The position numbers and the translations under genes are program-made. 32,000 nt of DNA from Micrococcus luteus NCTC 2665 (GTDB lineage Bacteria > Actinomycetota > Actinomycetes > Actinomycetales > Micrococcaceae). The first letter of the stretch is position 1, and every line of letters begins with the position of its first letter. The DNA is taken from contig NC_012803.1 in the NCBI RefSeq assembly GCF_000023205.1, positions 30,001 to 62,000 on the forward strand. The letters run 5' to 3'. The notes below the pieces were generated by a model that saw only the letters and a list, made by a program, of their open reading frames with translations, had not been told where the DNA came from and did no database searches. Below are positions 2,369-31,912 of the stretch, piece after piece.

Positions 2369-3143
2369 CCACCGATTCGGCCTCCACCTCCCCGATGCCG
2401 CGATGCTGGCGGGCGTCCTCCTGGTCGGGGCCGTGCATCAGGACGTGCCCGAGTTCGTGGGCGAGCGTCTTGACCTGAGCGGCGGGGGCCATGTTCTCCC
2501 GGACCGCGACCGTCTTCGCGGTGTAGTCCGTCATGCCGTTGGCGCCGTGGATCATGCCCTCGTGCGGCACCCGCACCACAGTGAACCCGCGATCCTCAAC
2601 CAGCTTGGCCAGACCATTCCACAACCCGACCGGTGCTTCGCCTTCCAGCAGCTTCGGTGCCGGCGGTTCCGGGATCGGGTCACCGGCAGTCTGCGAGGCG
2701 TCCCACACGTAGGCGGGCTTGGCGGTGATCATCTTCGAGCGCACGACCTCACCGGGGCGCGGTTTCTCGCCCTTGCCCAGCCGCCGCCACGACTCCGGGT
2801 CAGCCGGTGTCGCGGTAGCGAAACGGCCGGTGACCGGGGCGAGGATCATGTACCCCGACTGACCCTTCTCCACCTGCCGGCCCAGGGTCTGCCACTGGCG
2901 ATACCCGGCCGCATACGACGGCACCGGCTCCGGCACCCGACCCGCCTCGAAAGCCGCGGCATGCTGTGCCCAGATCAACAGGGTGTTGGAGAACGATCTC
3001 GCCCTGAACCGTGCGGCGAACGCGATCGCCCGGCCCCAGTCGTCGCCGGAGACGAGCTGTTCGACCGCGCCGGTCAGCCGCTCGTGAAGCTCATCGAGCT
3101 TCGCCTCCCGCGCGGCCTGGGTTTCCTCCCGTGTCGTGGCCAT
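2352..3143 (-). pseudogene. ArdC-like protein (N-terminal ssDNA-binding domain plus HExxH zincin), 5' part truncated by IS256 copy 1. Native sequence is 2369..3143; the last codons and the stop are IS-encoded
   Basis: ARSFSNTLLIWAQ...YRQWQTLGRQVEKGQSGYMILAPV matches the ArdC-N pattern. HELGHVLMH is a metalloprotease motif. The frame ends ...EVEAESVG-SSPE* immediately inside the IS. GGAGGAG lies upstream of ATG 3143. Confidence 0.8.
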
Positions 3144-12000: not shown

Positions 12001-12644
12001 TGATCCGCGGCTCGGGCCTGACTGCCGAACAGGCCGAGGCCGCGATCGAGTCCGAGGCGTTCGGGGCGCTCACCGCGGAACTGCGCCGAGCCGAGGCCAA
12101 CCACCACGACCTCGACACCTTGCTCCCACGCCTGGTTGTCGCGCGCGGGTTCACCGACGCCGACGACATCGCCTCCGTCCTGCACTACCGGGTGGCCCGT
12201 GCCACCGCCCGCCCAGCCGGCTCGGGACGCACCCGCAAGACGCCACGGATGATCGCCGGACTGATCCCGTCCGCGGACGGCCCGATGACCGGCGACATGC
12301 GGCAGGCACTCGATGAGCGGCGCGAGCTGATCGAGACCCGCGCCGAGGCCGTGCTCGACACCGCATGCGACGCCGGAGAAGCATGGACGCGGCCACTCGG
12401 TGAGCCACCGCGCGAGCCGCGCACGGCAGCGGCGTGGCGACGGCATGGCCGCACCATCGCTGCTTACCGTGACCGGTACGGCATCACCGACGTGACGCCG
12501 CTCGGATCACCGGCCGAGAGTGACACACAGAAGATCGATCAAGCGCGAGCCGCCGCCGCGCTGCGGACCATCACACTGGCAACGCAGGCCCCGGAGCGTG
12601 AGAGCCAGCCCGTCAGACAAGTGACTCGCGGGCTCGGGCTCTGA
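9099..12644 (+). CDS. MobF-family conjugative relaxase (TrwC/TraA type) fused to a RecD-like helicase, 1181 aa
   Basis: N-terminus MTVSMRVMSAGDGYRYLL. Histidine triad FDHFDSRAGDPHLHTHVVISN. Walker A LVGPAGAGKTT. Walker B LVIIDEASL. C-terminus YAITAHRAQGVTVD. The GTG 9099 start is preferred over ATG 9111 by spacing to the conserved SAGDGY motif. Confidence 0.92.
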   Translation: MTVSMRVMSAGDGYRYLLRTVAAADGDRELSTPLTRYYAEAGTPPGQWLGSGVTSLGKGQLAVGDRVSEAQLQLLMGMGRDPITGDPLGHAFPAYKSVPERIESRIADLDPGLSPGAKGQAVAQIEVEETERGRRRAVAGFDFTFSIPKSASALWAVADSGTQALIGKAHHAAVAEVVAFMEREVAATRSGATAGDGAVAQVDVTGLVATAFDHFDSRAGDPHLHTHVVISNKVQTAFDGRWRSLDGRPMHAAVVALSELHEAVFADHMTRTFGVAWEARDMGRDRNPAWAISSVPEELVAEFSTRARHIDAEKDRLIAEYVAKHGRQPSTATIIKLRAQATLATRPEKEVRSLAELTAEWRTRASGVLGQDTTAWASAATDNDKPLLLRADDVPLDAIGELGRTVVGVVGERRSTWRRWNLMAEASRQTMGWRFATMQDREAVVGMVADAAEAVSLRLTPPDFATSPVAFRRVDGTSVFRPKHSTVFSSELLLAAEDRLLDRSRTATGPTVPLATVEKVTTEPDREGRMLGEDQADALMKVAVSGRMLDVLVGPAGAGKTTAMSALRRAWEKEHGEGSVVGLAPSAVAAQVLADDLGIATENTAKWWQDHLIHGENFRAGQLVIIDEASLAGTLSLDRITHLAERAGAKVLLVGDYAQLQSVDAGDAFGLLVGDRDDAPELVDVHRFTHEWEKTASLALRHGRTQVIDAYLDHDRIRDGDAEAMTDAAYTAWRADRSQGLVSVLVAETRDDVSALNQRARADLILDGTLRPGREVELNDGVTAGVGDTIITRRNDRRLRNGKDWVRNGDAWTVTGVRDDGSVTIRKAGRRFGGSLVLPTAYVTDHVDLGYAITAHRAQGVTVDTAHVLVEPTTTRENFYVAMTRGKHANRAYVILDRPDEHAHPHPGDNADATGRSVLFGVLQHVGAELSAHETITAEQEQWGSIAQLVAEYETIAAAAQRDRWATLIRGSGLTAEQAEAAIESEAFGALTAELRRAEANHHDLDTLLPRLVVARGFTDADDIASVLHYRVARATARPAGSGRTRKTPRMIAGLIPSADGPMTGDMRQALDERRELIETRAEAVLDTACDAGEAWTRPLGEPPREPRTAAAWRRHGRTIAAYRDRYGITDVTPLGSPAESDTQKIDQARAAAALRTITLATQAPERESQPVRQVTRGLGL

Positions 12645-12701
12645 GGGGACCGCATCGGCCTGTCATCCTTACTGGAGACGATTGGACGGAATGGTGACGG
12701 C

Positions 12702-13832
12702 ATGACACAAGCCGAGCTCGCGGCTGAGGTGGCGCGCCGCCTCGGAGTCGTCGCGCATCCCGCCACCACCCAGATCGCCGAAGCGGTCGCGTTGTTCGCC
12801 CCGTTGGGATGGGCGATGTGCGGTCGCTGGCACCAGGCCGGGACCGTTCGGGTCCTGCGGCTTGCTGCAAGTGGTGTTGAGTCCGCGGCGATCGATGAGG
12901 CGATCACCGAGGTCTGGAACTCTGACAATCAGGTTCTTCTCCGGCATGCAGCGGCACCGATACGGCGATGGTCGAACTCGCACTACCCGTTCAAGCAGGT
13001 GATTTGGGACCGCGTGGCTCTCATCGAGAAGGCGATTCAGCATCATCTCGCGGGAGCCTACGAGGCGTCGATCCCGATCATCCTTGCGCAGATCGACGGG
13101 ATGAGCCGCGACCTGACAGGGCAGTCGTTCTTTTCCAAAGCCAACGCGGACCCGTATCTTGATGACGCAACGCTGGCCGGGATGGAGGAGAACCTGCCGG
13201 TCGTCCGCCGAGTCTTCTCCAAGAACGTCGATGAGTCCGGAAGCTTCGGTCTCGTCTCACGCCACGGTGTTTTGCACGGTCGAGACCTTGGCTACGCGAC
13301 GCGTGTGAACTCGACCAAGACGATCGTGCTCGTCGCCGCTCTGGCGGAGTACTTTCCGCGTATCGCGGATGACGCCGGCGCTCGGCTACGCCGACTCCAC
13401 GAAGAGTCCGTTGCTGGCTCGCGGGAACTCGATGAGTCGGGTCGGCTGCTCGATGATCGACACCTCCCCGAGCTACTCAACTTCGCCTACGACTTCGACA
13501 CCGAGTACCTCAACGCTGTGCTCCTTCGTCCCGGCCCGTTCGATGTACACGCGACGCTCGCGGAGCTTGCCAGGAAGCACAACCTCGACCACGATACCTT
13601 TGTCGTCGGGCAAGATCGCGTCGGCTGCTGGTGGCACTACACAGTCCCCGCAGGCCAGACGCTCGGCTATGCGGCTCGGCCGACGACCAGCACCGAAAGG
13701 CGGCACCCCGACGTCTGGCGATGGGACACCTCCGACGCGCCCACCGGGCCGCCGTGGACGAAGGCGGAGGGGTGGCGATCGGACGATGACTTCCCGCGGT
13801 CACCCAATTGGGAGCGCGACCCCGTCATCTGA
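12702..13832 (+). CDS. Hypothetical protein, 376 aa, with a HEPN-like R-x4-H motif
   Basis: High-GC3 ORF 57 nt after the relaxase stop. The helical region AIQHHLAGAYEASIPIILAQIDGMSRDL is followed by GLVSRHGVLHGRDLGY (R187-x4-H192). I do not recognise a family. Confidence 0.55.
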   Translation: MTQAELAAEVARRLGVVAHPATTQIAEAVALFAPLGWAMCGRWHQAGTVRVLRLAASGVESAAIDEAITEVWNSDNQVLLRHAAAPIRRWSNSHYPFKQVIWDRVALIEKAIQHHLAGAYEASIPIILAQIDGMSRDLTGQSFFSKANADPYLDDATLAGMEENLPVVRRVFSKNVDESGSFGLVSRHGVLHGRDLGYATRVNSTKTIVLVAALAEYFPRIADDAGARLRRLHEESVAGSRELDESGRLLDDRHLPELLNFAYDFDTEYLNAVLLRPGPFDVHATLAELARKHNLDHDTFVVGQDRVGCWWHYTVPAGQTLGYAARPTTSTERRHPDVWRWDTSDAPTGPPWTKAEGWRSDDDFPRSPNWERDPVI

Positions 13833-13878
13833 CGATGTGACGGACGAAACGTATCGATAGCGGAGAGCGAGAGACGAA

Positions 13879-14520
13879 GTGAGTGAAGATCCGGTTGGTC
13901 GTGCCGAAGGCATCATCGCTGGGTTCGACGCGATACTGCCCGAGCAAGAACGGGTGCTGGAACAAGCTGCTGAGAACGTCAAGCTCGGTCTCGAAAGAGA
14001 CTCCGAGGTCTACCGAGGGTTCACGCAGCTTCAGTTCTTCATCCTCACGGTCGACTTTGATATGCGGGTCATGCTCCGCGCTCTGCTTGCCGACCCGCAG
14101 AATCGGCTCACCGCCGAGAAGTTCCTCGCCTTGACCCTCGAAGAGGCAGAAGAGTCGGCAGGGCGGATGGTCAATGCCGTATCCAAGGCGATGCGGACTC
14201 TACCCAATGACACCGGCATCCATCTGTTCGACATCACCAAGTTCGATGAAGCGGTGCGCGCATTCAAACAGGCGATGTCGGAGATGAGGGACGACAAGGA
14301 GTTCAACAAGACCCTACGTCTCATTCGGAACACGGTCTCCGGCCACATTGTCGGCGACGAGGTCGGTGTCCAGAACAGCGCAATCTGGGTCCTCACCCGC
14401 AAAGGCGTCCCACGCGACATCGACGGAGTCTTGCGGAGCCAGATCGTCTACTACGCCATCGCGACGTTGAAGGCACTGAGCGAGTTCGCGCAGGGGCTGC
14501 AACGAACCCTGCGCGCCTGA
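13879..14520 (+). CDS. Hypothetical helical protein, 213 aa, with an Abi/HEPN-like RNxxxxH motif
   Basis: GTG start 46 nt after the previous stop. TLRLIRNTVSGHIVGDE (R150-N-x4-H156) resembles the RN...H signature of Abi-type HEPN domains. Confidence 0.5.
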   Translation: MSEDPVGRAEGIIAGFDAILPEQERVLEQAAENVKLGLERDSEVYRGFTQLQFFILTVDFDMRVMLRALLADPQNRLTAEKFLALTLEEAEESAGRMVNAVSKAMRTLPNDTGIHLFDITKFDEAVRAFKQAMSEMRDDKEFNKTLRLIRNTVSGHIVGDEVGVQNSAIWVLTRKGVPRDIDGVLRSQIVYYAIATLKALSEFAQGLQRTLRA

Positions 14521-14714
14521 GTGCTTTCCACGACCGAGCGGAGGCGGCAGCGAGGGAGTCGCAGTGGAGGGGAGTGTGACAGCTCCGTCTGAATCGGTCC
14601 AGAAGCGACCGGTCCGTTGCCTGCGCCGAGCCAGCACATTGGCGACACGTACCGAGGTGTTGAGAGCGCGTCGCAGCAACGGCCTGTGTCAGACCGCCAT
14701 GGGAAGGTTGAAGC

Positions 14715-15239
14715 ATGGTAGCCATCTCAATCGTTGCCCTGGTCATCTCGGCCTTCGCCCTGCCATTCACCATCTGGGCAGCGCGGGCGGCCGCGAGGCA
14801 GGCGAAGGCGGCGCACGACCAGACGGAGATCCAACGCGAGCAGGTAGCCGCCGCGCGGGAGCAGACTCAACTACAACGCGATCTCGCTCATGAGGCACTA
14901 CAGCCCTACGTGTGGGCGGACATCCAGCCAGATATGCAACAAGGCACCGTGATGCACGTGGTGGTGGGTAACAACGGTCCCACCGTCGCACGCAACGTGA
15001 GGGTGACGTTCGATCCACCGCTTCCAGCCGGCCAGCAACAGTCGGACAAGGTCGAGAGTGTTCAGCGGGTGCTCGCCAGCGGACTCCGCTCACTCGCGCC
15101 GAAACGGGAAATCCGGTGGACGCTCGGTGCCGGCTACGACCTCCTGTCCAGCGAGGAACCACAGGTCCGCACTGTGCGTGTCGAAGGCGAGGGCCCGCAC
15201 GGTCCGGGTCAAGTCCCGAGTAGTGGTGTAACGCTCTGA
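14715..15239 (+). pseudogene. N-terminally membrane-anchored hypothetical protein, 5' part, truncated by IS256 copy 2. Native sequence is 14715..15206; the tail GQVPSSGVTL* is IS-encoded
   Basis: The TM segment is MVAISIVALVISAFALPFTIWAA. The frame enters the IS at 15207. Confidence 0.7.
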
Positions 15240-16631
15240 TCCTCCATTGGTGCTGTTAGGCGCTGAGTTCGAGGGTGGTTTCCGGTTCGGCGTTCACCTC
15301 GTTCCCGGTGTCGTCCACGGTGGTGAGGCGGCAGCGGGCCAACACCTCGAGGCCGAGGTAGCGGCGGCCCTCGGCCCACTCATCGGTCTGCTCAGCCAGC
15401 ACCGCCCCGACCAGGCGCACGATCGCTGCCCGGTTCGGGAAGATGCCCACGGCGTCGGTGCGACGCCGGATCTCGCGGTTGAGCCGTTCGGCCGGGTTGT
15501 TCGACCAGATCTGGGTCCACACGTCCTTGGGGAACGTGGTGAACGCCAGGATGTCCGCCCGGGCACCATCGAGGTGTTCGGCCACCGCGGGCAGCTTTTC
15601 GCTGACGTAGTCCAGCAGCCGGTCGAACTGGGCGTCCACGCTGGCGGCGTCGGGCTGGTCATACACCGAGTGCAGCATGGCCTTCACGGCCGGCCACATG
15701 GACTTGGGGGTGATGCCCATCAGGTTCGCCGCGTAGTGGGTCCGGCACCGCTGCCAGGTCGCTCCGGGCAGGTTCGCGGCGATGGCGTCCTTGAGCCCGG
15801 TGTGGGCGTCGGAAGTGACCAGGCGGACTCCGGTCAGGCCCCGGGCCACCAGGTCGGCGAAGAACTCGTTCCACGCCGACCCCGTCTCCGAGGTGGCCAC
15901 CCGCAGGCCGAGGACCTCGCGGTGGCCGTCACCATTGACCCCGGTGGCCAGCAGCACCACGGCGTTGACCACCCGGCCGCCCTCGCGGACCTTCATGCTC
16001 AGCGCGTCGGCGGCCACGAACGTGAACGGCCCAGCCTCCCCGAGCGGGCGATGACGGAAGGACTCGACCTGCTCGTCCAGCTCGGTGGCCATCCGCGAGA
16101 CCTGGGACTTCGACAGCGCGTTGATCCCGAGGGTCTTGACCAGTTTGTCCATCCGCCGGGTCGAGACCCCGGCCAGGTAGCAGTCGGCGACCACCGTGAT
16201 CAGCGCGGATTCGGCCCTTTTGCGGCGCTCGAGCAGCCACTCCGGGAAGTACGTGCCCGACCTGAGTTTGGGGATCGCCACGTCCAGGGTCCCGACCCGG
16301 GTGTCCAGGTCCCGGTGCCGGTACCCGTTGCGCTGGGTAGCTCGGCCCGGGGTGGGTTTACCCCATTCGGCGCCGACCACCGCGTCGGCGTCAGCGGAGA
16401 GCAGGGAGTTGATCACGGTCTGCAGCAACGAACGCATCAAATCCGGGGATGCTTCGGACAGGGCTTCGCCGAGCAGGCCGGCAGGGTCGACAATATGAGG
16501 AGCGGTCATCGTGATGACTCCGTTCGAGGATTCTGTGAGAGGTTGACTCGAAGGATCACACGGTGGCCGCGTCCACGTCTGGAACGACGTGCCCGACCAC
16601 CGGGCGCTACACCACTATGCGGGACTCAACT
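15207..16631 (-). mobile_element. IS256-family insertion sequence, copy 2 (1425 bp), inverted relative to copies 1 and 3
   Basis: Same ends as copy 1. The 8-bp target duplication ACGGTCCG lies at 15199-15206 and 16632-16639. Confidence 0.92.
15256..16509 (-). CDS. IS256-family transposase, 417 aa
   Basis: The protein, and all overlapping shadow ORFs, are identical to those of copies 1 and 3. Confidence 0.93.
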   Translation of the reverse strand: MTAPHIVDPAGLLGEALSEASPDLMRSLLQTVINSLLSADADAVVGAEWGKPTPGRATQRNGYRHRDLDTRVGTLDVAIPKLRSGTYFPEWLLERRKRAESALITVVADCYLAGVSTRRMDKLVKTLGINALSKSQVSRMATELDEQVESFRHRPLGEAGPFTFVAADALSMKVREGGRVVNAVVLLATGVNGDGHREVLGLRVATSETGSAWNEFFADLVARGLTGVRLVTSDAHTGLKDAIAANLPGATWQRCRTHYAANLMGITPKSMWPAVKAMLHSVYDQPDAASVDAQFDRLLDYVSEKLPAVAEHLDGARADILAFTTFPKDVWTQIWSNNPAERLNREIRRRTDAVGIFPNRAAIVRLVGAVLAEQTDEWAEGRRYLGLEVLARCRLTTVDDTGNEVNAEPETTLELSA

Positions 16632-16639
16632 ACGGTCCG

Positions 16640-16942
16640 CTGCCTGTCCTCGAAATTCAGATCGACATCTCAGAGTGGCGTCAGGCCAGGGACGCTCCGG
16701 ACGGCTCACTGCACCATGTACGTGGCGCGATCAAAGACCTCACCAAGGCCGTGGGTGGCGTAGACAAGACGATGAAGCGTGTTGTCGATCGCTTGGATTA
16801 CCCAGCGCCAGAGACGGTCGAACTCAATGAAATGAGCGACGCCTTCACCAGGCAGCAACTCGCACCGCCAGCACCCGAGGATGAGGCGGATTCCAGCACG
16901 GATCGAGCATCACTGCCACCGCCGACGGCGGAGGAACAATAG
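16640..16942 (+). pseudogene. 3' fragment of the membrane-anchored hypothetical gene interrupted by IS256 copy 2
   Basis: After the duplicated CAC GGT CCG (HGP) the frame continues LPVLEIQIDISEWRQARDAPDGSLHHVRGAIKDLTKAV...PPPTAEEQ* with TAG at 16940-16942. This matches the tail of track ORF 16589..16942. Confidence 0.75.
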
Positions 16943-16953
16943 CGCCTGCGGAA

Positions 16954-18378
16954 AGTAGTGCCCCATAGAGTGGTGTAGCGCACGGTGACTGGGCACGTCG
17001 TTCCGGATGTGGACGCGGCCACCGTGTGATCCTTCGAGTCAACCTTCCACAGAATCCTCGAACGGAGTCATCACGATGACCGCTCCTCATATTGTCGACC
17101 CTGCCGGCCTGCTCGGCGAAGCCCTGTCCGAAGCATCCCCGGATTTGATGCGTTCGTTGCTGCAGACCGTGATCAACTCCCTGCTCTCCGCTGACGCCGA
17201 CGCGGTGGTCGGCGCCGAATGGGGTAAACCCACCCCGGGCCGAGCTACCCAGCGCAACGGGTACCGGCACCGGGACCTGGACACCCGGGTCGGGACCCTG
17301 GACGTGGCGATCCCCAAACTCAGGTCGGGCACGTACTTCCCGGAGTGGCTGCTCGAGCGCCGCAAAAGGGCCGAATCCGCGCTGATCACGGTGGTCGCCG
17401 ACTGCTACCTGGCCGGGGTCTCGACCCGGCGGATGGACAAACTGGTCAAGACCCTCGGGATCAACGCGCTGTCGAAGTCCCAGGTCTCGCGGATGGCCAC
17501 CGAGCTGGACGAGCAGGTCGAGTCCTTCCGTCATCGCCCGCTCGGGGAGGCTGGGCCGTTCACGTTCGTGGCCGCCGACGCGCTGAGCATGAAGGTCCGC
17601 GAGGGCGGCCGGGTGGTCAACGCCGTGGTGCTGCTGGCCACCGGGGTCAATGGTGACGGCCACCGCGAGGTCCTCGGCCTGCGGGTGGCCACCTCGGAGA
17701 CGGGGTCGGCGTGGAACGAGTTCTTCGCCGACCTGGTGGCCCGGGGCCTGACCGGAGTCCGCCTGGTCACTTCCGACGCCCACACCGGGCTCAAGGACGC
17801 CATCGCCGCGAACCTGCCCGGAGCGACCTGGCAGCGGTGCCGGACCCACTACGCGGCGAACCTGATGGGCATCACCCCCAAGTCCATGTGGCCGGCCGTG
17901 AAGGCCATGCTGCACTCGGTGTATGACCAGCCCGACGCCGCCAGCGTGGACGCCCAGTTCGACCGGCTGCTGGACTACGTCAGCGAAAAGCTGCCCGCGG
18001 TGGCCGAACACCTCGATGGTGCCCGGGCGGACATCCTGGCGTTCACCACGTTCCCCAAGGACGTGTGGACCCAGATCTGGTCGAACAACCCGGCCGAACG
18101 GCTCAACCGCGAGATCCGGCGTCGCACCGACGCCGTGGGCATCTTCCCGAACCGGGCAGCGATCGTGCGCCTGGTCGGGGCGGTGCTGGCTGAGCAGACC
18201 GATGAGTGGGCCGAGGGCCGCCGCTACCTCGGCCTCGAGGTGTTGGCCCGCTGCCGCCTCACCACCGTGGACGACACCGGGAACGAGGTGAACGCCGAAC
18301 CGGAAACCACCCTCGAACTCAGCGCCTAACAGCACCAATGGAGGATCAGAGCGTTACACCACTACTCGGGACTTGACC
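16954..18378 (+). mobile_element. IS256-family insertion sequence, copy 3 (1425 bp)
   Basis: The 8-bp target duplication CTGCGGAA lies at 16946-16953 and 18379-18386. The interior is identical to copy 1, but the outermost 17 nt of the left end differ (AGTAGTGCCCCATAGAG versus AGTTGAGTCCCGCATAG). Confidence 0.9.
17076..18329 (+). CDS. IS256-family transposase, 417 aa
   Basis: Identical to 1066..2319. Confidence 0.93.
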   Translation: MTAPHIVDPAGLLGEALSEASPDLMRSLLQTVINSLLSADADAVVGAEWGKPTPGRATQRNGYRHRDLDTRVGTLDVAIPKLRSGTYFPEWLLERRKRAESALITVVADCYLAGVSTRRMDKLVKTLGINALSKSQVSRMATELDEQVESFRHRPLGEAGPFTFVAADALSMKVREGGRVVNAVVLLATGVNGDGHREVLGLRVATSETGSAWNEFFADLVARGLTGVRLVTSDAHTGLKDAIAANLPGATWQRCRTHYAANLMGITPKSMWPAVKAMLHSVYDQPDAASVDAQFDRLLDYVSEKLPAVAEHLDGARADILAFTTFPKDVWTQIWSNNPAERLNREIRRRTDAVGIFPNRAAIVRLVGAVLAEQTDEWAEGRRYLGLEVLARCRLTTVDDTGNEVNAEPETTLELSA

Positions 18379-18389
18379 CTGCGGAACTC

Positions 18390-21200
18390 TCAGTCGCTGG
18401 TGCTCTCGCGTGCAGCTTCGCGAATCTGTGCTGAAGGGTGCTGCGCGGCGATGGTCAGCAGTTGAGAAACGGCTGGCACCTCCGAAGGCGTGTGGAGCCC
18501 GGAAACGACCGCCGCGGCACTCCGCCTTCCGCCAGACTTCAGGACCTTCGACAGGATCGTCGCGACTCCCTCAGATGCGCGCTCGGCAACGACCAACCTG
18601 CTCAGCCCTCTGAGTGCCGCGTCACGTACGGCTTCGGTTGCGTCACCCGCTAGAGCGAGAAGGAGTTCGGACTCTGCCTTGTCTCCGAAACGTTCGATGA
18701 TCCGTGCACTTGCGGCACGGCGAACGGTGTCCCCGCCAAGAAGGTCCCGTATCAACGGTTCGCGCGCGGCCTCATCTGCGAGAGCAGCGAGCGCTTCGGC
18801 GGCGAGGCCTCGGATGTCCTCGTCGTCATCGAAGAAGGTCCGCACTGGCTCTCGGTTCCGAAGCGCTGACACGGCTTCGACAAGTTGTGTCTTGATTGGG
18901 TCGGCAAGCGTCGCTCCATGGATGGCGAGTACCTGCAATGCGCCAGACTGTTGCTGAGGTCGGACCCCGGGAGCCGTCAACAGAGCTTCGATACGATCCC
19001 ACCGCCCACTCGACGGGTGCCAGACACCGAGCAGGGTCATTGCATGGCCGGGGTCGAGACCGCCGACACTGTACGCCCCCTTGGCGGCATCCTCGATGAG
19101 ATTGTCGATGACGCTGCACAGTCGGTCAGTAAGAGCATTGACTGCATCGGAGGGCAGCGTTCGCACGTCGTCGATGGCTTCGAAGACGATCAACTCCCCG
19201 GCCCGGGCTCGTTGAAGGACTTGCTCGCGACTCTCGGCTACTGCAGGAGCAGCGACCCTCAAGAAGGCCTCGCGTAGGTAGGCGGCGTCGCCGTCAGATC
19301 GGTTCGCCGCGCGCTGACGGTCACTCTCACGCCACGCGGATGCGGGGATCGTATGGATCAGCCGGGCGAGTGTCTGCGCGGTTCCGTCGTCGGTGACCGG
19401 GGGCTGGTCGAGGAAGTAGTCGATCACGTTGTGAAGGGCGTCCTCGCTCAACGTCCACACCATGGCCTTCAGCAGATCGATGATCTTGTAGAGCACGATG
19501 AATGTAGGCCGAGCACGTTCCAGGTAGGCCTGTGGCTCTTGGAGCATCGCCAGCGCCCACGCACAGGTTTCGTCGGCGCGCGCTGGTTCGAGAACGTCGC
19601 CGGCGGCCGTCAGCAGTTCGATATCTGCCAAAGCGGTCGTTCGAGTCGATCGAGACAAGTCCACGCTGCTCGCCGCGATCCTGGCGGCCATCGTTGGACC
19701 CGTGCGCACGATGTGTCGAGTCGCGCGCCCAGTGCTCTTGCTGTCACCGGAGAGACGGAGAAGAGTCAGCCGGCCGGCGACCCTGTCGGGATCATCCGTG
19801 GGGCCGGTGGTGACAAGGAAGTGCTCCGCGAGAGCGCCAATTGCGCCACGCCACCCGTCGTGGTCACCAGCGCACGAGGCCAGCAACGCCGCGGAAAGCA
19901 GGCGCTTGTGGGCAGTGTCCGAGCCCCCGATCCGAATCGACGCATCCTCGCTCCATCTCCGGAACTCCTCAGAGAGATGAGCGGATAGCCCATAGGACAT
20001 CACCTGGGTTCTCCACCACGACGCTGGGTTGTCGCTGCGCTGGATGATGTTGGCGATGTCGCCCTGCATCCATCCGCTGGCCCTGAACGACGTCAGCGCA
20101 CACGCGCCCGCGATGGCCGCAGCCGTGACGTCCGACGGTGCCTCTCGATGGATTCGCTGGGTCTTCATCGCGAGGTCGAAAGCCTCCTCGTGTCGTCCGA
20201 CCTCCAGCAGCGCCCGTGCTCGTTGAGCTTCTAGCCATGCGTGATCCACTGAGGAGTAGTCGTCATGTGCCAGGGCGTCCTGAAGCACTTGGAGCGCCGT
20301 ATCGGGATCGTTCTCGTCGAAGTGATAGACGCAGCGGAGCACGGATGCCGCGGAGCGTTCACTCGGCGTGGAAGCTAGGTCGACAAGCTGAAGCAGGTCA
20401 GCGGGTTCTCCCTGGTAGTGCCAGAGATGAAGGGCCGCGGTGGCGCGCCAACACCAGTCATCGGCCTCACGTGCATCGTCGAGTGACAGCCCCTTCCGCT
20501 CGGCGTCATTCTCCCCTGCGAGCGCAGGAAGGCTCATCGGTTCCAGAATCCGTTCAAGGTCGTCCCGGAAGAGCACTTGCATGGCGAGGGCTTCGAGCCC
20601 GGAGATCGAATCTGGGACCAGGTTCGGGTGGGGTGCGATGAGCCGGGGAGTGATGAGGGCATGCCGAACTTCGTCGACCGGTGCAAGATGCACCGCGCCG
20701 GTCCACGCAGTGCCGTCCCAGGTCGGAGTCGGAAGCTGCGTCAGCGCGACGTCGGAGAGTGCTTCGTTGTGGTCCGCGTCAACGGTTTGGGAGGCCGGTA
20801 CAAGAATCTTGGCGCCCTTACCGGTCGAGACGACTCGCGCAGGGGTGACGTGAACCCAGAACGAGAGGTTTCTGTCTTGATCGCGCAGGATCACCACGTG
20901 GGGCAGCGCGTGGCGCAGCCAGTAGTCGAAGTGTTCACGGTCGTCCTCGGCAAACCACCACCCAGTGATCGTGCCCTCGGCGTCCTTCTGCGGGGTCTTG
21001 AAGTAAGACGACCCGGTCTTGACCTGGGCACCCATCACGGCGCCGAGTTCGTACCGGCGGGCATCTCGCGGCCGCAGATATAGATCGGTGCCTGTGTCGT
21101 GCCGGCTATCGATCACCCCTCCCCAGCCCAAGCGCTCGAACTGCGCCAAGACCTCAGACTCACCCGAGGTTCCCGTAGCTTCGTTCTTTGGCGCCCGCAC
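18390..21200 (-). CDS. Large orphan protein, 936 aa: DUF4365-like (PD-(D/E)xK / Mrr-type) N-terminal domain, long helical/TPR-like middle, C-terminal HEAT repeats
   Basis: N-terminus GESEVLAQFERLGWGGVIDSRHDTGTDLYLRPRD...GAQVKTGSSYF...HFDYWLRHALPHVVILRD. C-terminal repeats IRGLAAEALAAL, VRRAASARIIERFGD, VRDAALRGLSRL, IREAARES. I found no P-loop. The GTG start is directly after the TAG of the upstream gene, with GGAGGAGG at 21213-21206. Confidence 0.65.
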   Translation of the reverse strand: MRAPKNEATGTSGESEVLAQFERLGWGGVIDSRHDTGTDLYLRPRDARRYELGAVMGAQVKTGSSYFKTPQKDAEGTITGWWFAEDDREHFDYWLRHALPHVVILRDQDRNLSFWVHVTPARVVSTGKGAKILVPASQTVDADHNEALSDVALTQLPTPTWDGTAWTGAVHLAPVDEVRHALITPRLIAPHPNLVPDSISGLEALAMQVLFRDDLERILEPMSLPALAGENDAERKGLSLDDAREADDWCWRATAALHLWHYQGEPADLLQLVDLASTPSERSAASVLRCVYHFDENDPDTALQVLQDALAHDDYSSVDHAWLEAQRARALLEVGRHEEAFDLAMKTQRIHREAPSDVTAAAIAGACALTSFRASGWMQGDIANIIQRSDNPASWWRTQVMSYGLSAHLSEEFRRWSEDASIRIGGSDTAHKRLLSAALLASCAGDHDGWRGAIGALAEHFLVTTGPTDDPDRVAGRLTLLRLSGDSKSTGRATRHIVRTGPTMAARIAASSVDLSRSTRTTALADIELLTAAGDVLEPARADETCAWALAMLQEPQAYLERARPTFIVLYKIIDLLKAMVWTLSEDALHNVIDYFLDQPPVTDDGTAQTLARLIHTIPASAWRESDRQRAANRSDGDAAYLREAFLRVAAPAVAESREQVLQRARAGELIVFEAIDDVRTLPSDAVNALTDRLCSVIDNLIEDAAKGAYSVGGLDPGHAMTLLGVWHPSSGRWDRIEALLTAPGVRPQQQSGALQVLAIHGATLADPIKTQLVEAVSALRNREPVRTFFDDDEDIRGLAAEALAALADEAAREPLIRDLLGGDTVRRAASARIIERFGDKAESELLLALAGDATEAVRDAALRGLSRLVVAERASEGVATILSKVLKSGGRRSAAAVVSGLHTPSEVPAVSQLLTIAAQHPSAQIREAARESTSD

Positions 21201-22334
21201 CTACGCCTCCTCCGTTGCCTCGTCCGCAACAACGCGAACGTTGCGCATCGCAGAGCCAGTGAATATGAGCGGAATGAACGAGTCTCGAAACGCGATTCCC
21301 GCTGGCCGCCTCGCAGGCCCGCCACCGGGAGGAGTGGTGAGAGGGAACCTCATTCCCACCGGAGCCTTGCCGGAAACATGGTCAGGATGTGGGCCGCCCA
21401 CGGGATAACCGGGATGAGCGGGAGCGCCCAGATAGTCGGGAAGGTCTACCCGTCCTTCGAAGTGTTTCGTGGCCGCGACATGGAACATCGCCCCGTGGGC
21501 CCAGGCGATCATGTAGGCCTCGGCGAGAACGGCAGGGACATCCACCCTCAACTGCGTTAGCTCCAGCCCTTGTCGATGCCCGTCCACCTTGGGTGCCTGT
21601 GCGAGAACTTCGATGACGGGGCGGTCGAAGATGTCCACAGCGTCCGGGCCGGTCAGCACACCAACCGGGATGGTCCCATCTGCGCTGGGCGGAGTGGTGA
21701 CGAATGAGACTTTGAGATCATCACGAGCGCGGACTGAGAGACCGTGCTTGACCTTGTTGTGAGCAGCGTTGAGTTGGAGCTCATGTCCCACGAGTAGGTC
21801 GATAGCGAACTGGAGCCAGTCAGCGAACACGTTGGACGCCGAAGCAAGTCGCTCCGTCATCCCGCTCTGCAAGTCCTGCTCGCGGAGAACCAGACGGACG
21901 AACTGCATCGGGGCCTCCGCCGAGGAGAAGGACTCGCGGAGCTGGCTTACGACCTGATCGAGTTGGTTTCGCCCGGCCGACAGGGCTTCCCAAACGCACG
22001 ATTCGGCGACGTTCGTCCGTTGCGAGAGTGCCGCCGTCAACCGCACAAGCGACTCAGCCGCATGGTGCCGCAGGGCGTACGCGTCCGTGGCGACCTGTGT
22101 GGCAATGGACCTCGGCGAGGTCTCGGGTACGAAGCCCACCGGCCGACCAAGGAGGCGAGCGAACCGCCCACGGGTCTCGATCGCGTGCTGCTGTTCCGCG
22201 GATGCGGCCAGGGGATGCTCATCGCTGTCGACGTCCGACTCTGCCCACCGCAGCATCATGCCGATCCGAGCGCTGAAGTACCCGTACGGATCAGACGACA
22301 AAAAAGTGGCTCTCCTGACTGATCCGTGGGTCAT
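21201..22334 (-). CDS. Hypothetical protein, first gene of the operon with the DUF4365-HEAT gene. Its native 5' end has been displaced by ISL3. The present ORF begins with 9 IS-encoded codons (MTHGSVRRA)
   Basis: High-GC3 frame ...FLSSDPYGYFSARIGMMLRWAESDVDSDEHPL...LNAAHNKVKHGLSVRARDDLKVSF...ADEATEEA*. Native sequence ends at 22307 (the IS begins at 22308). The part of track ORF 21201..22865 above 22334 lies inside the ISL3 transposase gene. Confidence 0.6.
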   Translation of the reverse strand: MTHGSVRRATFLSSDPYGYFSARIGMMLRWAESDVDSDEHPLAASAEQQHAIETRGRFARLLGRPVGFVPETSPRSIATQVATDAYALRHHAAESLVRLTAALSQRTNVAESCVWEALSAGRNQLDQVVSQLRESFSSAEAPMQFVRLVLREQDLQSGMTERLASASNVFADWLQFAIDLLVGHELQLNAAHNKVKHGLSVRARDDLKVSFVTTPPSADGTIPVGVLTGPDAVDIFDRPVIEVLAQAPKVDGHRQGLELTQLRVDVPAVLAEAYMIAWAHGAMFHVAATKHFEGRVDLPDYLGAPAHPGYPVGGPHPDHVSGKAPVGMRFPLTTPPGGGPARRPAGIAFRDSFIPLIFTGSAMRNVRVVADEATEEA

Positions 22335-23704
22335 TTCCGGCCCGGTAGGACGGGTCGGTGGCCGCCGAGGTTGAGCATGGCCAGGGCGATGAGGGCTTCG
22401 GGGGACTTGAAGCCGAAGGCGACGCGGGTGATGAGCCGAATCTTCGTGTTCACGGACTCGATACGTCCGTTGGACAGGCCGTGCTCGATCGCGGCGAGGA
22501 TCGAGGCCTTGTGCTTGACGATGCGGCGTTGGAGCTCGACGAAGGCGGGGATGCGGCAACGTCGGGCCCAGCCGATCCAGCGTTCCAGGGCCGTCTCGGC
22601 CTCGTCGGCGGGTAGCTGGAAGACCAGGCGCAGTCCTTCCTTGAGCAGGTAGGCCCGGTGCAGGCGCGGGTCGGTCTTGGCGACCCAGGCGAGCTTGGCC
22701 TGCTGCCGGGTGGTGAGGTTCTCGGGGTTCTTCCACAGCGCGTACCGGGCGTGCTTGAGCGCCTTGGCGTGCCCGCCGGCCCGCCCGGCCCGGCGCTGCC
22801 GGACCGCGCCACGGGCCTCGTTCCACGCCTGGCGACGGACCTCGTCCAGGGCCTCGGTGGCCCACTTGACGATGTGGAACGGATCAGCGCACCGCACCGC
22901 GTTCGGGCACCGCTCGGCGACCACGGCGGCGATCCAGTCCGCCCCGTCGGCGCTGACGTGGGTGATCTCGGCGCACCGGTCGGGCCCGAGGGCCTCGAAG
23001 AACGCCGCCAGGGTCGCCTTGTCCCGGCCCGGGGCGGCCCAGACGAGCCGGCCGGTGTCGTGGTCGACCACGATCGTGAGGTAGCGGTGGCCCTTCTTGT
23101 AGGAGATCTCATCGATGCCGATCCGTCGCAGGCCGGCGAACCGGTCGCCGAGGGCCTCCACGTCGGCCCAGACCCGGGTGATGATCGCCCCGACGGTGCG
23201 CCAGGCGATGCGCATCAGCTCGGTGACCGCGGACTTGGAGCACTGCGTGGCCAGCCAGGCCACCTGCTCGTCGAACACCACGGTGTGACCGGCCCCGTGC
23301 CTGGCCCACGGGACGGCGGCCACCGTGGGACCGTGCTCGCGGCAGGCCACCCGCGGGGCGTCGGCCTCGAGGTAGACCTGCACCGTGCCCAGATCCAGCG
23401 CCCGCCACCGCCGCCGACCCTCGCCACGGTCGTACCCGGGCGACCTGCGCCCGCACCGCCCGCACCGGCCACGCACTCGAGCCCGGGGACGGACATGAGC
23501 CACCAGGAGCTGGTCGTCCTCATCGAACTCGATGCCCTCCACGACCGTCTTCTCGACGCCCAGCAAGGACCGCCATAGGCTTGCGTTCCGCACGCCGTTC
23601 TCCGCCCTTCAGGTAACTGACCTCAACAGCCAGAAACCTAGGCAGAGAGCGGCGTGCCCTCGTCAACGGCTCGCCAGAACACCCACGGAAGCGTCAGGAG
23701 AGCC
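22308..23704 (-). mobile_element. ISL3-family insertion sequence A (1397 bp)
   Basis: Terminal inverted repeats: GGCTCTCCTGACTGATCCGTGGGT (22308-) and the reverse complement of the other end GGCTCTCCTGACGCTTCCGTGGGT (-23704). The 8-bp target duplication AAAAAAGT lies at 22300-22307 and 23705-23712. Confidence 0.92.
22331..23593 (-). CDS. ISL3-family transposase, 420 aa
   Basis: N-terminal zinc-ribbon CGRCGRRSPGYDRGEGRRRWRALDLG, then ...GIDEISYKKGHRYLTIVVDHDTGRLVW...ADPFHIVKWA...SNGRIESVNTKIRLITRVAFGFKS. Confidence 0.92.
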   Translation of the reverse strand: MRNASLWRSLLGVEKTVVEGIEFDEDDQLLVAHVRPRARVRGRCGRCGRRSPGYDRGEGRRRWRALDLGTVQVYLEADAPRVACREHGPTVAAVPWARHGAGHTVVFDEQVAWLATQCSKSAVTELMRIAWRTVGAIITRVWADVEALGDRFAGLRRIGIDEISYKKGHRYLTIVVDHDTGRLVWAAPGRDKATLAAFFEALGPDRCAEITHVSADGADWIAAVVAERCPNAVRCADPFHIVKWATEALDEVRRQAWNEARGAVRQRRAGRAGGHAKALKHARYALWKNPENLTTRQQAKLAWVAKTDPRLHRAYLLKEGLRLVFQLPADEAETALERWIGWARRCRIPAFVELQRRIVKHKASILAAIEHGLSNGRIESVNTKIRLITRVAFGFKSPEALIALAMLNLGGHRPVLPGRK

Positions 23705-23712
23705 AAAAAAGT

Positions 23713-23772
23713 GTCGTCAAGCTCCTGACACTGCTCGGCCGTCAGGTCCGGCCCGGCTGGTGGCGGGTACAT
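23713..23772 (-). pseudogene. Orphaned native 5' end (20 codons, MYPPPAGPDLTAEQCQELDD) of the gene at 21201..22307
   Basis: Deleting the IS and one duplication copy joins ATG 23772 in frame to ...ACT TTT TTG TCG TCT GAT CCG (TFLSSDP...). An in-frame TGA lies immediately upstream of this ATG. An internal start (ATGATG, MMLRW) remains an alternative. Confidence 0.45.
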
Positions 23773-24038
23773 TCAACAAGCGTATGGTCGCGAAATCGGC
23801 CTGCCCAGTCGCCTCGCCGGGCCACCGGCACGCAGCATGATCCACGCCTCATACGAGAGTAGGGCGGACGACCAGTCGGAGCGCTCCAGGACCGCGACCC
23901 TGGCTGTCCAGCTTCTTCCTTCTGACAGGAATCACCCGTAGACTGCCTGATGAGGCGGATTTCTCCTCTGTAACGCGCCGGTCTCGGCAGACCCTCGGGT
24001 CATTCTTCAACGCACTGCCTCACCAGATGCACTGTGCG

Positions 24039-24449
24039 ATGGAGAGGAACAAGACCATGATCCGTCTGATCTGGACCGTCAGCGTCCACACCCGCTACTT
24101 CCTGCGGCGCTACATGCCCACCAACATCCTGCTGTATGCGATCCGAACCCGCCGACGCGGCTTGAAGTGGGGTATCCCCGCGATGCTGCTCGCAGTCCCG
24201 TAAATCCTGATCGCGAACGCCTGTGTCCAACTCATCGACGACGGCGCCCCCGGATGGCTCCACCTCGCAGTGCTGTGGGCGATCTGGAACATGCTCAAGA
24301 TGCTCTGGATCGGGCCGGTCAGCGCTGTGCTCCTAATCCGCGCCCGTGTCCGCGAGTCCATCACCGCCCGTCGCGAGCGCACCAGCTTGTCTTCCGAAGC
24401 AGACGACGCCGAAGAGCGTGCCGCGGTGGACGCAATAGGTATTCGGTGA
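24039..24449 (+). pseudogene. Small two-TM membrane protein with one in-frame TAA (24201-24203)
   Basis: My translation gives MERNKTMIRLIWTVSVHTRYFLRRYMPTNILLYAIRTRRRGLKWGIPAMLLAVP*ILIANACVQLIDDGAPGWLHLAVLWAIWNMLKMLWIGPVSAVLLIRARVRESITARRERTS...IR*. GC3 is high on both sides of the stop. The stop falls inside a hydrophobic segment. The two halves fall below the length range of ORFs listed in the track, and the second half also lacks an upstream start codon. Confidence 0.55.
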
Positions 24450-24460
24450 AGTGTGAGAAC

Positions 24461-24823
24461 TCAGGCACCGACCCGGCGACGACCGCCGGTACGGATCGTC
24501 CCGCCGCACGCGATCACCGCCGAGCGCACGGCCTCATGGCTGACTCCGAGTCGCGCGGCGACCTGAGCGAGCGTCATCCCACCCGCATAGAGTTGAGCGG
24601 CGTCCTGTCGGATCGCGTCCGGCAACTCCGGGCGACGCGCCGCCAAGCCCGCCTCCCGAGCTATCTCCCGCACAGTGCCGCGGTGCACGTTGAATCGCGT
24701 CGCCAGCTCCCGCACGGGCACACCATCGGCGTAACCGGCGACCAGCTCGGCTCGATTGGAGACGCTCAAACGGGTTTGAGACTGCCGCGAATTCTCACGC
24801 ACCGGACCGCGCTCATCGGTCAT
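24461..24823 (-). CDS. Small helix-turn-helix protein (two HTH-like repeats), 120 aa
   Basis: MTDERGPVRENS...ELVAGYADGVPVRELATRFNVHRGTVREIAREAGL...AAQLYAGGMTLAQVAARLGVSHEAVRSAVIACG. The longer track ORF (to 25156) runs into the IS3 end and reads as non-coding. Confidence 0.6.
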   Translation of the reverse strand: MTDERGPVRENSRQSQTRLSVSNRAELVAGYADGVPVRELATRFNVHRGTVREIAREAGLAARRPELPDAIRQDAAQLYAGGMTLAQVAARLGVSHEAVRSAVIACGGTIRTGGRRRVGA

Positions 24824-25112
24824 CCGAGCACCCCGAGCGCGCGGCTGACGAGCCCGAGAACCCCGTAGAACACGGGAAATCAGCGATCCGAGCGGCTTCC
24901 GGGGGTTTGAGAAGCTGCTACGGAGGTCCACCGCACGCACAAGGCTCGAACCCTTGCCAACGGAAACGTTGGTCGAGGTTCGGGCCTTGTTCGCGTCTGC
25001 GGCCCAGGTCAGAGCGTTGGCATTGACCTGCGGATCGAGGAGCATCTCGAAGGGTCGGTGTGCTCGACGCGCAGCTCGTTGTGAAGCGCCCTGAGTCTGG
25101 TGGAGACTCGCG

Positions 25113-29937: not shown

Positions 29938-30013
29938 CTATGTAATATATCTCACATGACAAAATTCGACGGCCCCTGTAACGTCTCTCATGTAGCGCGT
30001 CTCACGTGACAAG
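29938..30013 (+). promoter_or_regulatory. AT-rich dnaK upstream region with three copies of a CTCAYRTGA-like motif and a TAATAT -10-like hexamer
   Basis: CTCACATGAC (29951-29960), CTCTCATGTAG (29985-29995), CTCACGTGAC (30001-30010, containing the perfect palindrome TCACGTGA). The first two sit in an approximately 22-nt imperfect direct repeat CTATGTAATATATCTCACATGA / CCCTGTAACGTCTCTCATGTAG. TAATAT is at 29943-29948. Confidence 0.3.
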
Positions 30014-30028
30014 AAAGGAACAATCATC

Positions 30029-31894
<1,866 letters not shown>

Positions 31895-31912
31895 CACGGA
31901 GGGAGGATCGCG

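Follow-up and report, generated by a model that had tools for sequence, protein, structure and literature searches.

A DREN-solenoid protein on a Micrococcus luteus mobile element: candidate single-gene immune nuclease with a lineage-specific partner

What is the functional unit of a two-gene locus on a mobile element of Micrococcus luteus NCTC 2665: the pair, or one of its genes? The locus lies in a window of 32,000 nt, the whole stretch of DNA analysed (positions 30,001-62,000 of NC_012803.1, assembly GCF_000023205.1; all coordinates below are window-based, and those of the features are collected in Table 1). A first-pass annotation, made from the sequence alone, had proposed there an undescribed two-gene defence system composed of a 936-aa nuclease-headed repeat protein and an obligate partner. 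Every sequence detail of that annotation which was checked proved correct. The large open reading frame (ORF) is present as claimed, and its product has a 100% identical counterpart among the proteins of Micrococcus luteus NCTC 2665. The comparative analysis described here points to the single large gene as the primary unit and to the pair as a lineage-specific elaboration. We consider it rather probable that the large protein is an anti-invader nuclease; the fuller reading, in which it is an autonomous effector-sensor and the partner an add-on in one mobile lineage, is held more tentatively, at somewhat less than an even chance. In either case the large protein is, for now, a candidate immune protein.

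The N-terminus had been assigned to DUF4365, a nuclease module of the PD-(D/E)xK type, and this assignment held at the level of family, motif and predicted fold. The Pfam family PF14280 matches residues 12-151 with an E-value of 3.7e-24 (85.8 bits against a cut-off of 24.3), which corresponds to positions 3-138 of the 139 in the family model. Residues D35, G37, D39, Q59 and K61 of the DxGxD...QxK motif are invariant across 54 homologues. These homologues were also used for an AlphaFold model of the whole protein, with a predicted local distance difference test score (pLDDT) of 88.8 and a predicted template modelling score (pTM) of 0.79. In a Foldseek search, the first ~165 residues of this predicted model matched the DREN chains of SPARDA complexes, namely 9qcc_M (E 8.6e-6, 167 aligned columns), 9vx6 and 9jt2, and the profile of the large-protein family matches the DUF4365 chain of XauSPARDA (9qbq_A) by sequence at 4.3e-5.

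The motif residues align with positions at which mutations eliminate activity or toxicity in three characterized proteins. They correspond to D41/Q60/K62 of NbaSPARDA, which are Mg-coordinating and catalytic (PMC12205087), to Q62/K64 of TmuRE, where the Q62A/K64A variant served as the inactive control (PMC10810196), and to the DxGxD...QxK of EAT16, in which three of the four motif residues are required for toxicity (PMC11297309). It is also known that isolated DREN is monomeric and shows no detectable activity, and that tetramerisation activates it (PMC12205087). The N-terminal domain is best described as a predicted deoxyribonuclease (DNase) with an intact catalytic motif.

Behind the nuclease head, a conserved linker carries the motif PRLIAPHPN, for which no known counterpart was found. 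The confidence of the model is mixed in this segment (block-mean pLDDT of ~52-95), and the linker may have a role in autoinhibition or oligomerisation. The remainder of the protein is an alpha-solenoid, and its DSSP string is all helical after about residue 240. The middle portion, earlier described as helical and TPR-like, indeed shows predicted helical repeats, along with weak Pfam matches to TPR_19 and TPR_12 at residues 291-352. The C-terminal HEAT/PBS-lyase-type repeats were likewise recovered, as a HEAT_2 match at residues 791-866 (E 1.3e-6) and as PBS-type profile matches at residues 784-913; the family profile matches designed repeat proteins of the alphaRep/HEAT_PBS kind with E-values of 1e-26 to 1e-9, and also MTH187 and YibA. 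In structure comparisons with Foldseek, the solenoid resembles importin-beta/Kap121, the PP2A A subunit and CAND1 (E 1e-5 to 1e-4). Neither the large protein nor its partner contains a Walker A motif or a relaxed P-loop pattern, and the large protein has neither a Pfam match to a nucleoside triphosphatase (NTPase) nor an NTPase fold in its model, so the description of an NTPase-free protein stands. Long solenoids are a standard device for binding protein ligands and for building oligomers.

The tools and literature compared include no described system that covers this architecture, in which both the effector and the design principle are familiar from elsewhere. PADLOC-DB 2.0.0 gave no full-length or pair match: the large protein returned a match to its nuclease part and weak matches at E 0.01-0.07, and the partner returned none. 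The pair is covered by no PADLOC 2.0, NCBIfam or Pfam model; for PADLOC, the first-pass annotation had expected this outcome. A close relative of the effector is found in SPARDA (NbaSPARDA, XauSPARDA, TmuRE-Ago), with which the large protein shares the PF14280 effector, the predicted fold (9qcc, 9vx6, 9jt2) and the catalytic D...QxK, and, by analogy, probably also the outcome: once several nuclease heads have assembled, DNA is degraded collaterally. However, the large protein is devoid of an APAZ domain, its match to the PADLOC model Aga_REase-PNTD1-PNTD2 is limited to the nuclease part (model positions 6-144 of 429), and neither the window nor any related locus that was examined has a gene for a short prokaryotic Argonaute (MID-PIWI). 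Since a solenoid takes the place of APAZ and Argonaute, a guide-directed nucleic-acid trigger is unlikely.

The overall design is that of DSR2, likewise an NTPase-free protein of ~1000 aa in which an effector enzyme at the N-terminus precedes helical and HEAT-repeat domains. Cavities of the DSR2 solenoid bind a phage tail tube protein, and this switches the effector on (PMC11263360). The effector of DSR2 is, in contrast, a SIR2 NADase instead of DREN, no SIR2 match was found in the large protein, and no sequence relationship is detectable between the solenoids, so that the likeness is one of design only. Divona, a validated one-gene anti-phage protein from cassettes of Vibrio sedentary integrons, joins an N-terminal DUF4365/Mrr-type nuclease to a non-NTPase C-terminal domain (bioRxiv 10.1101/2024.07.02.601686); compared by description, it differs in its crr6 (PF08847) C-terminus and in its phylum, and the large protein has no crr6 match at E-values up to 1. 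Avs/NLR-like STAND immune proteins of the kind that carries an Mrr-type nuclease head and a TPR sensor resemble this design in having a nuclease head, a repeat sensor for a phage protein and activation by oligomerisation, but they are defined by the central STAND NTPase, whereas the large protein has no P-loop or NTPase fold. EAT16 contains the same DUF4365 with DxGxD...QxK (PMC11297309), yet it is a secreted effector delivered by an extracellular contractile injection system (eCIS) with a different C-terminal region, and no contractile injection system is present here.

The domain architecture, the intact motif, the lack of an NTPase, the pattern of synteny, the gene content of the neighbourhoods and the IS disruptions are direct observations; nuclease activity, activation by oligomerisation, a sensory solenoid, a defence function and whatever role the partner may have are inferred. 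By analogy with SPARDA, the DREN/DUF4365 head would be a Mg-dependent non-specific DNase, likely inactive as a monomer and turned on when several copies gather. The TPR/HEAT solenoid of ~780 aa would act as sensor and scaffold, either binding a phage- or plasmid-derived protein or losing a host ligand. Such an event would alter the oligomeric state and allow the nuclease heads to assemble; DNA would then be degraded, with the invader stopped or the cell killed (abortive infection). Ligand-driven assembly of the heads is proposed because DREN is inactive until assembled, because solenoids bind ligands and oligomerise, and because DSR2 and Divona offer precedents; the NTPase-free logic would be that of DSR2 (SIR2 plus HEAT solenoid) or of Divona (DUF4365 plus C-terminal domain).

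If the large protein is a defence nuclease, it would represent the SPARDA effector domain reused without Argonaute and wired to an NTPase-free repeat sensor. It would then be a nuclease counterpart to one-protein immunity of the DSR2 type. It would also provide a compact collateral DNase, switched by a ligand, in Actinobacteria such as Mycobacteroides abscessus and Rhodococcus, for which inventories of defence genes are relevant to phage therapy and plasmid engineering.

How, then, does the second gene relate to the first? At their junction the two genes do form one coupled unit, as had been claimed, and this holds for the present lineage. The GTG of the large gene (21200-21198) comes immediately after the TAG of the upstream gene (21203-21201), with a spacer of zero, and the Shine-Dalgarno-like GGAGGAGG is internal to the upstream gene. 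The same abutment, with the partner followed by the start of the large gene, is seen in loci of the paired clade (for example L005, L009, L011, L015, L016, L052, L055 and L132; L numbers designate the loci compared in this work). Judged from these junctions, partner and large gene are translationally coupled in the paired lineage. The G+C content of the operon is ~0.63-0.65, against 0.68-0.70 in parts of the window. A scan for sigma-70 promoters between 18250 and 24500 found none, although such a scan is uninformative for high-G+C Actinobacteria.

In the window itself, the partner gene is interrupted by an insertion sequence (IS) of the ISL3 family. Its transposase matches DDE_Tnp_ISL3 (Pfam, 5e-75), HTH_Tnp_ISL3 and Zn_ribbon_ISL3, its ends are imperfect terminal inverted repeats starting GGCTCTCCTGAC, and it is flanked by an 8-bp target duplication, ACTTTTTT, at 22300-22307 and 23705-23712. 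Excision of ISL3 together with one duplicate restores an in-frame gene of 1167 nt from the ATG at 23772, which encodes 388 aa, the size suggested by the first reconstruction. This repair can be accepted as real because Brevibacterium pityocampae (L005) carries an uninterrupted copy, without ISL3, that is 99.7% identical across all 388 residues; the large proteins of the two loci are 99.8% identical. Once ISL3 and two IS256 copies are removed, the window is colinear with L005 at 99.8% DNA identity.

The partner of this strain is deprived of its conserved first 20 residues: ISL3 has knocked it out and now lies between the nuclease gene and the native promoter. A further detail of this junction is that the ISL3 transposase ends in a TGA overlapping an ATG (22335-22333, minus strand; aaATGAcc). 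This ATG shares the reading frame of the truncated partner and is a possible start of a fusion, MTHGSVRRATFLSS. By read-through out of the transposase, an N-terminally altered partner and, via coupling, the nuclease could still be produced.

Whether the partner is obligate was addressed through homologous loci. A scan of 185,579 species genomes with the partner profile yielded 47 loci with 10-kb flanks, a scan of metagenomes with the large-protein profile yielded 80 loci, and co-occurrence was counted by hidden Markov model (HMM) searches over all ORFs of 133 loci. Both genes are present in 20 of these loci, the large gene only in 79 and the partner only in 34. The claim of an obligate partner is consequently unsupported, given that 79 of 99 loci with the large gene have no partner and 34 of 54 loci with the partner have no large gene. 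For the same reason as regards the first of these counts, the large protein is treated here as autonomous. Synteny of the homologues was checked elsewhere and is largely missing outside one clade and a single further locus (L036), which speaks against the two-gene system as the defining unit.

Of the 20 paired loci, 19 belong to one clade, at identities of at least 59%, and the other is L036. The large gene lies directly downstream only of partners at least 59% identical (L005, L006, L008, L009, L010, L011, L013, L015, L016, L019), and partner homologues of 35-51% identity have no large gene within 10 kb in more than 30 loci. Viewed from the other side, in the 80-locus metagenome scan the partner was found only beside large proteins at least 64% identical, and it is absent from all large-gene loci at 30-45% identity; in about 45 of these, the sequence available upstream extends for at least 1.3 kb. 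The large gene stands alone in Mycobacteroides abscessus and on plasmids of Rhodococcus and Streptomyces. Even inside the paired clade the association is not fixed: the large gene is degraded beside an intact partner in L007, L012 and L014, and absent in L017 and L018.

Within that clade, however, stop and start abut over the whole range of identities, from 100% to 59%, and partner and large protein have diverged to similar degrees, with partner/large-protein identities of 99.7/99.8, 83/85, 69/69 and 59/63 in paired-clade loci. In L036, from Phytoactinopolyspora limicola, the genes occur on the same strand in reversed order, the large gene preceding the partner by no more than 48 nt. Among the nearest relatives of the L036 partner (four further contigs checked) and of its large protein, all are solo; this pairing is a phylogenetically independent juxtaposition. 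Taken together, the abutment, the parallel divergence and L036 argue that the pairing is more than an accident.

These are the observations that would favour an obligate two-gene defence system in which the partner is the required sensor or activator of the DREN-solenoid protein: coupling by abutting codons and an internal Shine-Dalgarno sequence, both here and throughout the loci of the paired clade, the parallel divergence of the two products, and a second, independent adjacency. We nevertheless regard such a system as improbable, because both genes are mostly found apart, neither member of the L036 pair has a paired gene among its closest relatives, and in the paired clade each gene outlives the loss of the other (L007, L012, L014, L017, L018 and the window).

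More improbable still is a toxin-antitoxin or toxin-immunity pair, in which the partner would neutralise a DREN toxin and the pair would stabilise the mobile element. The layout, with a putative antitoxin upstream of a putative toxin and coupling between them, is as expected for such a pair, DUF4365 acts as a genuine toxin in EAT16, an eCIS effector, and the genes can be found on a plasmid beside AbiE toxin-antitoxin genes. Yet the conserved co-occurrence by which type II toxin-antitoxin systems are recognised is missing, with both genes held by 20 of 133 loci. The putative toxin is solo in most lineages, and so is the partner; in the window the toxin gene is intact despite a partner disrupted by ISL3, and a protein of 388 aa with many invariant His, Lys and Arg residues resembles an enzyme or binding protein rather than a typical antitoxin.

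A distant partner hidden beside solo large genes was also considered. The candidate, a 387-aa gene in L124-L130, is cutinase-like and unrelated to the partner (hhalign probability 0.1). These loci display an arrangement of their own: in L124 (5749-13025), L126, L127 and L130, and partly in L125, two DREN-solenoid paralogues flank the 387-aa cutinase-like gene on one strand. The paralogues are 25% identical to each other's lineage, the contigs are metagenomic, and the three-gene arrangement is distinct from the pair discussed here.

The neighbourhoods of the homologues fit residency in defence islands for both families. A descriptive count of ORFs within 3 kb of 51 non-redundant solo large genes included AAA_21 (four times), OLD-TOPRIM/AriA-like, Schlafen, PIN and SMC_N proteins, a type I methyltransferase, MADS components, JetA, PD-T4-6, PDC-S01 and PDC-S06. 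In Mycobacteroides abscessus (L001-L003), for instance, a solo homologue of 35% identity adjoins a 943-aa SMC_N/AAA_21 gene and a complete type I restriction-modification (R-M) operon (hsdR, hsdS, hsdM). Solo partners (n = 31) neighbour integrases (five), a relaxase, a resolvase, Avs2, GajB, Drt9, DolA/DolB, CHAT (two), DUF5677 and AbiEii. The pair itself occurs on the 15-kb Glutamicibacter plasmid pGnC15 in the order AbiTii-domain gene, partner, large gene, AbiEi, AbiEii. An AbiTii-domain gene upstream of the partner (L132, 2697-3641; L055, 3299-4603) marks the branch of the paired clade whose large protein is ~64% and whose partner is ~71% identical to those of the window; with AbiEi and AbiEii behind the nuclease gene on pGnC15, the result is a tight grouping of abortive-infection genes. 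Across 50,697 phage genomes, both families are all but missing. In Microbacterium sp. Bi121 (L047, 11203-15372), a 1389-aa NACHT protein is encoded 147 nt beyond a solo partner homologue, and the Avs2 model match of the pooled neighbour scan (E 3e-266) probably belongs to this NACHT protein.

The two genes might simply share a transcription unit, each acting autonomously in defence or for the mobile element and neither interacting with the other, as a compact 'defence islet' travelling on a plasmid or integrative element. Both families are mostly solo, their defence neighbours differ, and in pGnC15 and L055 the pair has AbiTii and AbiE genes on its flanks. This explanation has to be reckoned with, but we think it rather unlikely: abutting codons and an internal Shine-Dalgarno sequence have been maintained down to 59% identity, tight adjacency arose independently and in the other order in L036, and coupling and L036 together would be unusual for two functionally unrelated rare families.

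A non-immune role has been weighed as well: the large protein might process DNA or help to maintain plasmids and integrative elements of actinobacteria, with the solenoid as its scaffold. Entry exclusion, competition between replicons, and a nuclease function at telomeres or in partition are examples. The large gene does occur on linear and circular plasmids, including a position near the end of the linear pREL1 close to a telomere-binding protein gene, and in relaxase-bearing elements. Many chromosomal loci, on the other hand, lie beside R-M, OLD, MADS and Wadjet-type genes and not beside plasmid maintenance genes, and no neighbour is conserved across loci. We consider this role very improbable, at about the level of a toxin-antitoxin pair.

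The reading that we prefer thus remains that of an autonomous DREN-solenoid effector-sensor with an add-on partner. The partner belongs to a separate small actinobacterial family whose members are mostly solo and have defence or mobile-element genes around them. On plasmids and integrative elements of Micrococcales and relatives, one lineage of it would have become coupled to the nuclease gene and co-inherited with it. Its function there would most likely be accessory, as a second sensor or modulator, or as a synergistic second defence protein.

Several points weigh against this reading. Solenoids are scaffolds in non-immune proteins too, and the oligomerisation step has been transferred by analogy from SPARDA, whose scaffold is an Argonaute filament and not a solenoid. 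The neighbour counts are not a background-corrected enrichment, and the housekeeping genes gyrA, MMPL and polyprenyl synthase are also found near solo large genes. L036 is the sole pairing in reversed order, and loss in both directions (of the large gene in L007, L012 and L014, of the partner in the window) fits independence as well as cooperation. Finally, the comparison was made with PADLOC 2.0 models, and a recently named system could cover the large protein.

The partner is of separate interest, as a rare family that recurs in defence and mobile-element neighbourhoods and whose confident model has no match in PDB or BFVD. A profile search of representatives found 299 clusters at 50% identity among 1.84 billion proteins. 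The members have ~360-390 aa, all are single-domain, without informative fusions, and the named ones seen are all from Actinomycetota except for two oddly labelled records. Near-identical partner proteins carry the labels 'Bacillus subtilis' and 'Pseudomonadota MAG', for which contamination or mis-binning is the probable cause. The N-terminus, MYPPPxGxxLTxEQxxELDDTFL, is among the best-conserved parts of the family, which also displays two invariant polar clusters, R100-H101-H102-x-x-E105 and (H203)-N204-K205-x-K207-H208-G209, and many other conserved His and Arg residues. This residue pattern suggests an enzyme or a binder of phosphate or nucleic acid.

In the AlphaFold model of the partner (pLDDT 88.3, pTM 0.87), the N-terminal half is helical; a small beta region and a long helix follow, and a C-terminal segment rich in Pro and Gly wraps around. 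Foldseek searches with this model returned nothing significant in PDB (best E 0.43) or BFVD (best E 0.14), the partner profile retrieved only odorant-binding-protein noise from PDB sequences (E 0.67), Pfam searches of all 50 aligned members at E-values up to 5 gave scattered singletons only, and NCBIfam and PADLOC gave no match. The missing fold match is the most unusual element of the locus. On a bolder view, the partner would be the founder of a new fold and of a new class of actinobacterial immune proteins, with RHHxxE/HNKxKHG as a catalytic or ligand-binding site; solo in most genomes, it would license or widen the DREN-solenoid trigger in the Micrococcales lineage, and the two would constitute an undescribed kind of two-component system. 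We judge this view unlikely, though less so than an obligate pair.

Some narrower identifications of the partner were set aside. Reading HNKVKH as a degenerate HEPN Rx4-6H motif found no HEPN structure in the fold searches, and reading H203-x-K205 as the HxK motif of PLD meets with a spacing unfit for PLD; both are left as leads. Upstream regulators of the CapK/CapS type, described as an anti-sigma-factor-like kinase and a STAS-domain repressor that act as a gene pair upstream of immune operons (PMC13373217), were compared by description and rejected, as such a gene pair is a poor fit to a single 388-aa gene whose predicted structure resembles no solved fold. In Nocardioides (L020, L021, L029), the partner lies next to a gene for a pPIWI-associated nuclease; this is one element sampled thrice, with a spacer of ~210 nt and its own Shine-Dalgarno sequence, and the two genes are uncoupled.

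Table 1. Features of the locus and of the surrounding element (window coordinates; aa, amino acid positions in the 936-aa protein unless a protein length is meant).
Feature	Coordinates	Strand	Remarks
Large gene, 936-aa DREN(DUF4365)-alpha-solenoid protein	18390..21200	-	Intact ORF; GTG start 21200, stop 18390-18392
DUF4365/DREN nuclease domain, aa 12-151	20748..21167	-	Pfam PF14280; predicted; motif D35-x-G37-x-D39 ... Q59-x-K61
Conserved linker, ~aa 152-239	20484..20747	-	Near-invariant PRLIAPHPN (aa 185-193); invariant G163, W166, R179
Alpha-solenoid body, ~aa 240-936	18393..20483	-	TPR-like helices, then HEAT/ARM-like repeats
PBS-lyase-type HEAT repeats, aa 784-913	18462..18851	-	Family profile and HEAT_2
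Shine-Dalgarno-like GGAGGAGG	21206..21213	-	In last codons of partner gene, 5 nt 5' of large-gene GTG
Partner gene, native 5' end	23705..23772	-	ATG 23772; begins MYPPPAGPDLTAEQCQELDDTF; N-terminus conserved across partner family
Partner gene, 3' part, codons 23-388 and stop	21201..22299	-	Sequence and family alignment
ISL3-family insertion sequence	22308..23704	-	After partner codon 22; transposase 22331-23593
ArdC-like gene	2352-3143		
PIN_8 protein, 416 aa	7814-9064	+	Full-length domain (E 2e-62); just upstream of TrwC relaxase; orphan nuclease-like cargo
TrwC relaxase-helicase	9099-12644		
Convergent 264-aa gene	14715..16942	+	Context only; survives as 14715-15206 and 16632-16942; tblastn reconstruction, L005 colinearity
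IS256 copy 1	15207-16631		Splits 264-aa gene; 8-bp duplication
IS256 copy 2	16954-18377		In short spacer between convergent stops of 264-aa gene and large gene

The surroundings in the window agree with the cargo setting that had been described, with IS elements and defence-like orphans: they include a TrwC relaxase, an ArdC-like gene, a PIN_8 orphan and several IS. The term 'conjugative element' is borne out only in part: there is a relaxase, but no transfer or mating apparatus was found in the window. Other content consists of unannotated ORFs, two IS256, ISL3, remnants of IS30 and IS3, and then dnaK (30029-31894, HSP70 E 9e-250). Antisense to dnaK, the ORF 30002-31897 (minus strand) matches NAD-GH (PF10712) at E 3e-158; as this ORF is a shadow of dnaK, the Pfam match is no evidence of a gene.

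Large parts of the element recur at 89-98% identity in Brevibacterium and Georgenia, and it is therefore a horizontally moving element. The stretch 10910-24933 of the window is 89-99.8% identical to L005, L006, L009, L019 and L052, from Brevibacterium, Georgenia, Arsenicicoccus, Desertihabitans and Micrococcoides; at the sequence level this indicates recent transfer between genera.

The convergent 264-aa gene encodes a protein with a hydrophobic N-terminal stretch, likely a membrane helix, and without a Pfam match. As a third component of the system it was rejected, being conserved in just a part of the paired clade: it lies downstream of the large gene in L005, L006, L007, L008, L009, L015, L019 and L052 and is absent from L011, L016, L055 and L132. 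The two IS256 copies that have settled in and beside it are in inverted orientation and, together with ISL3, make three insertions around an intact nuclease gene.

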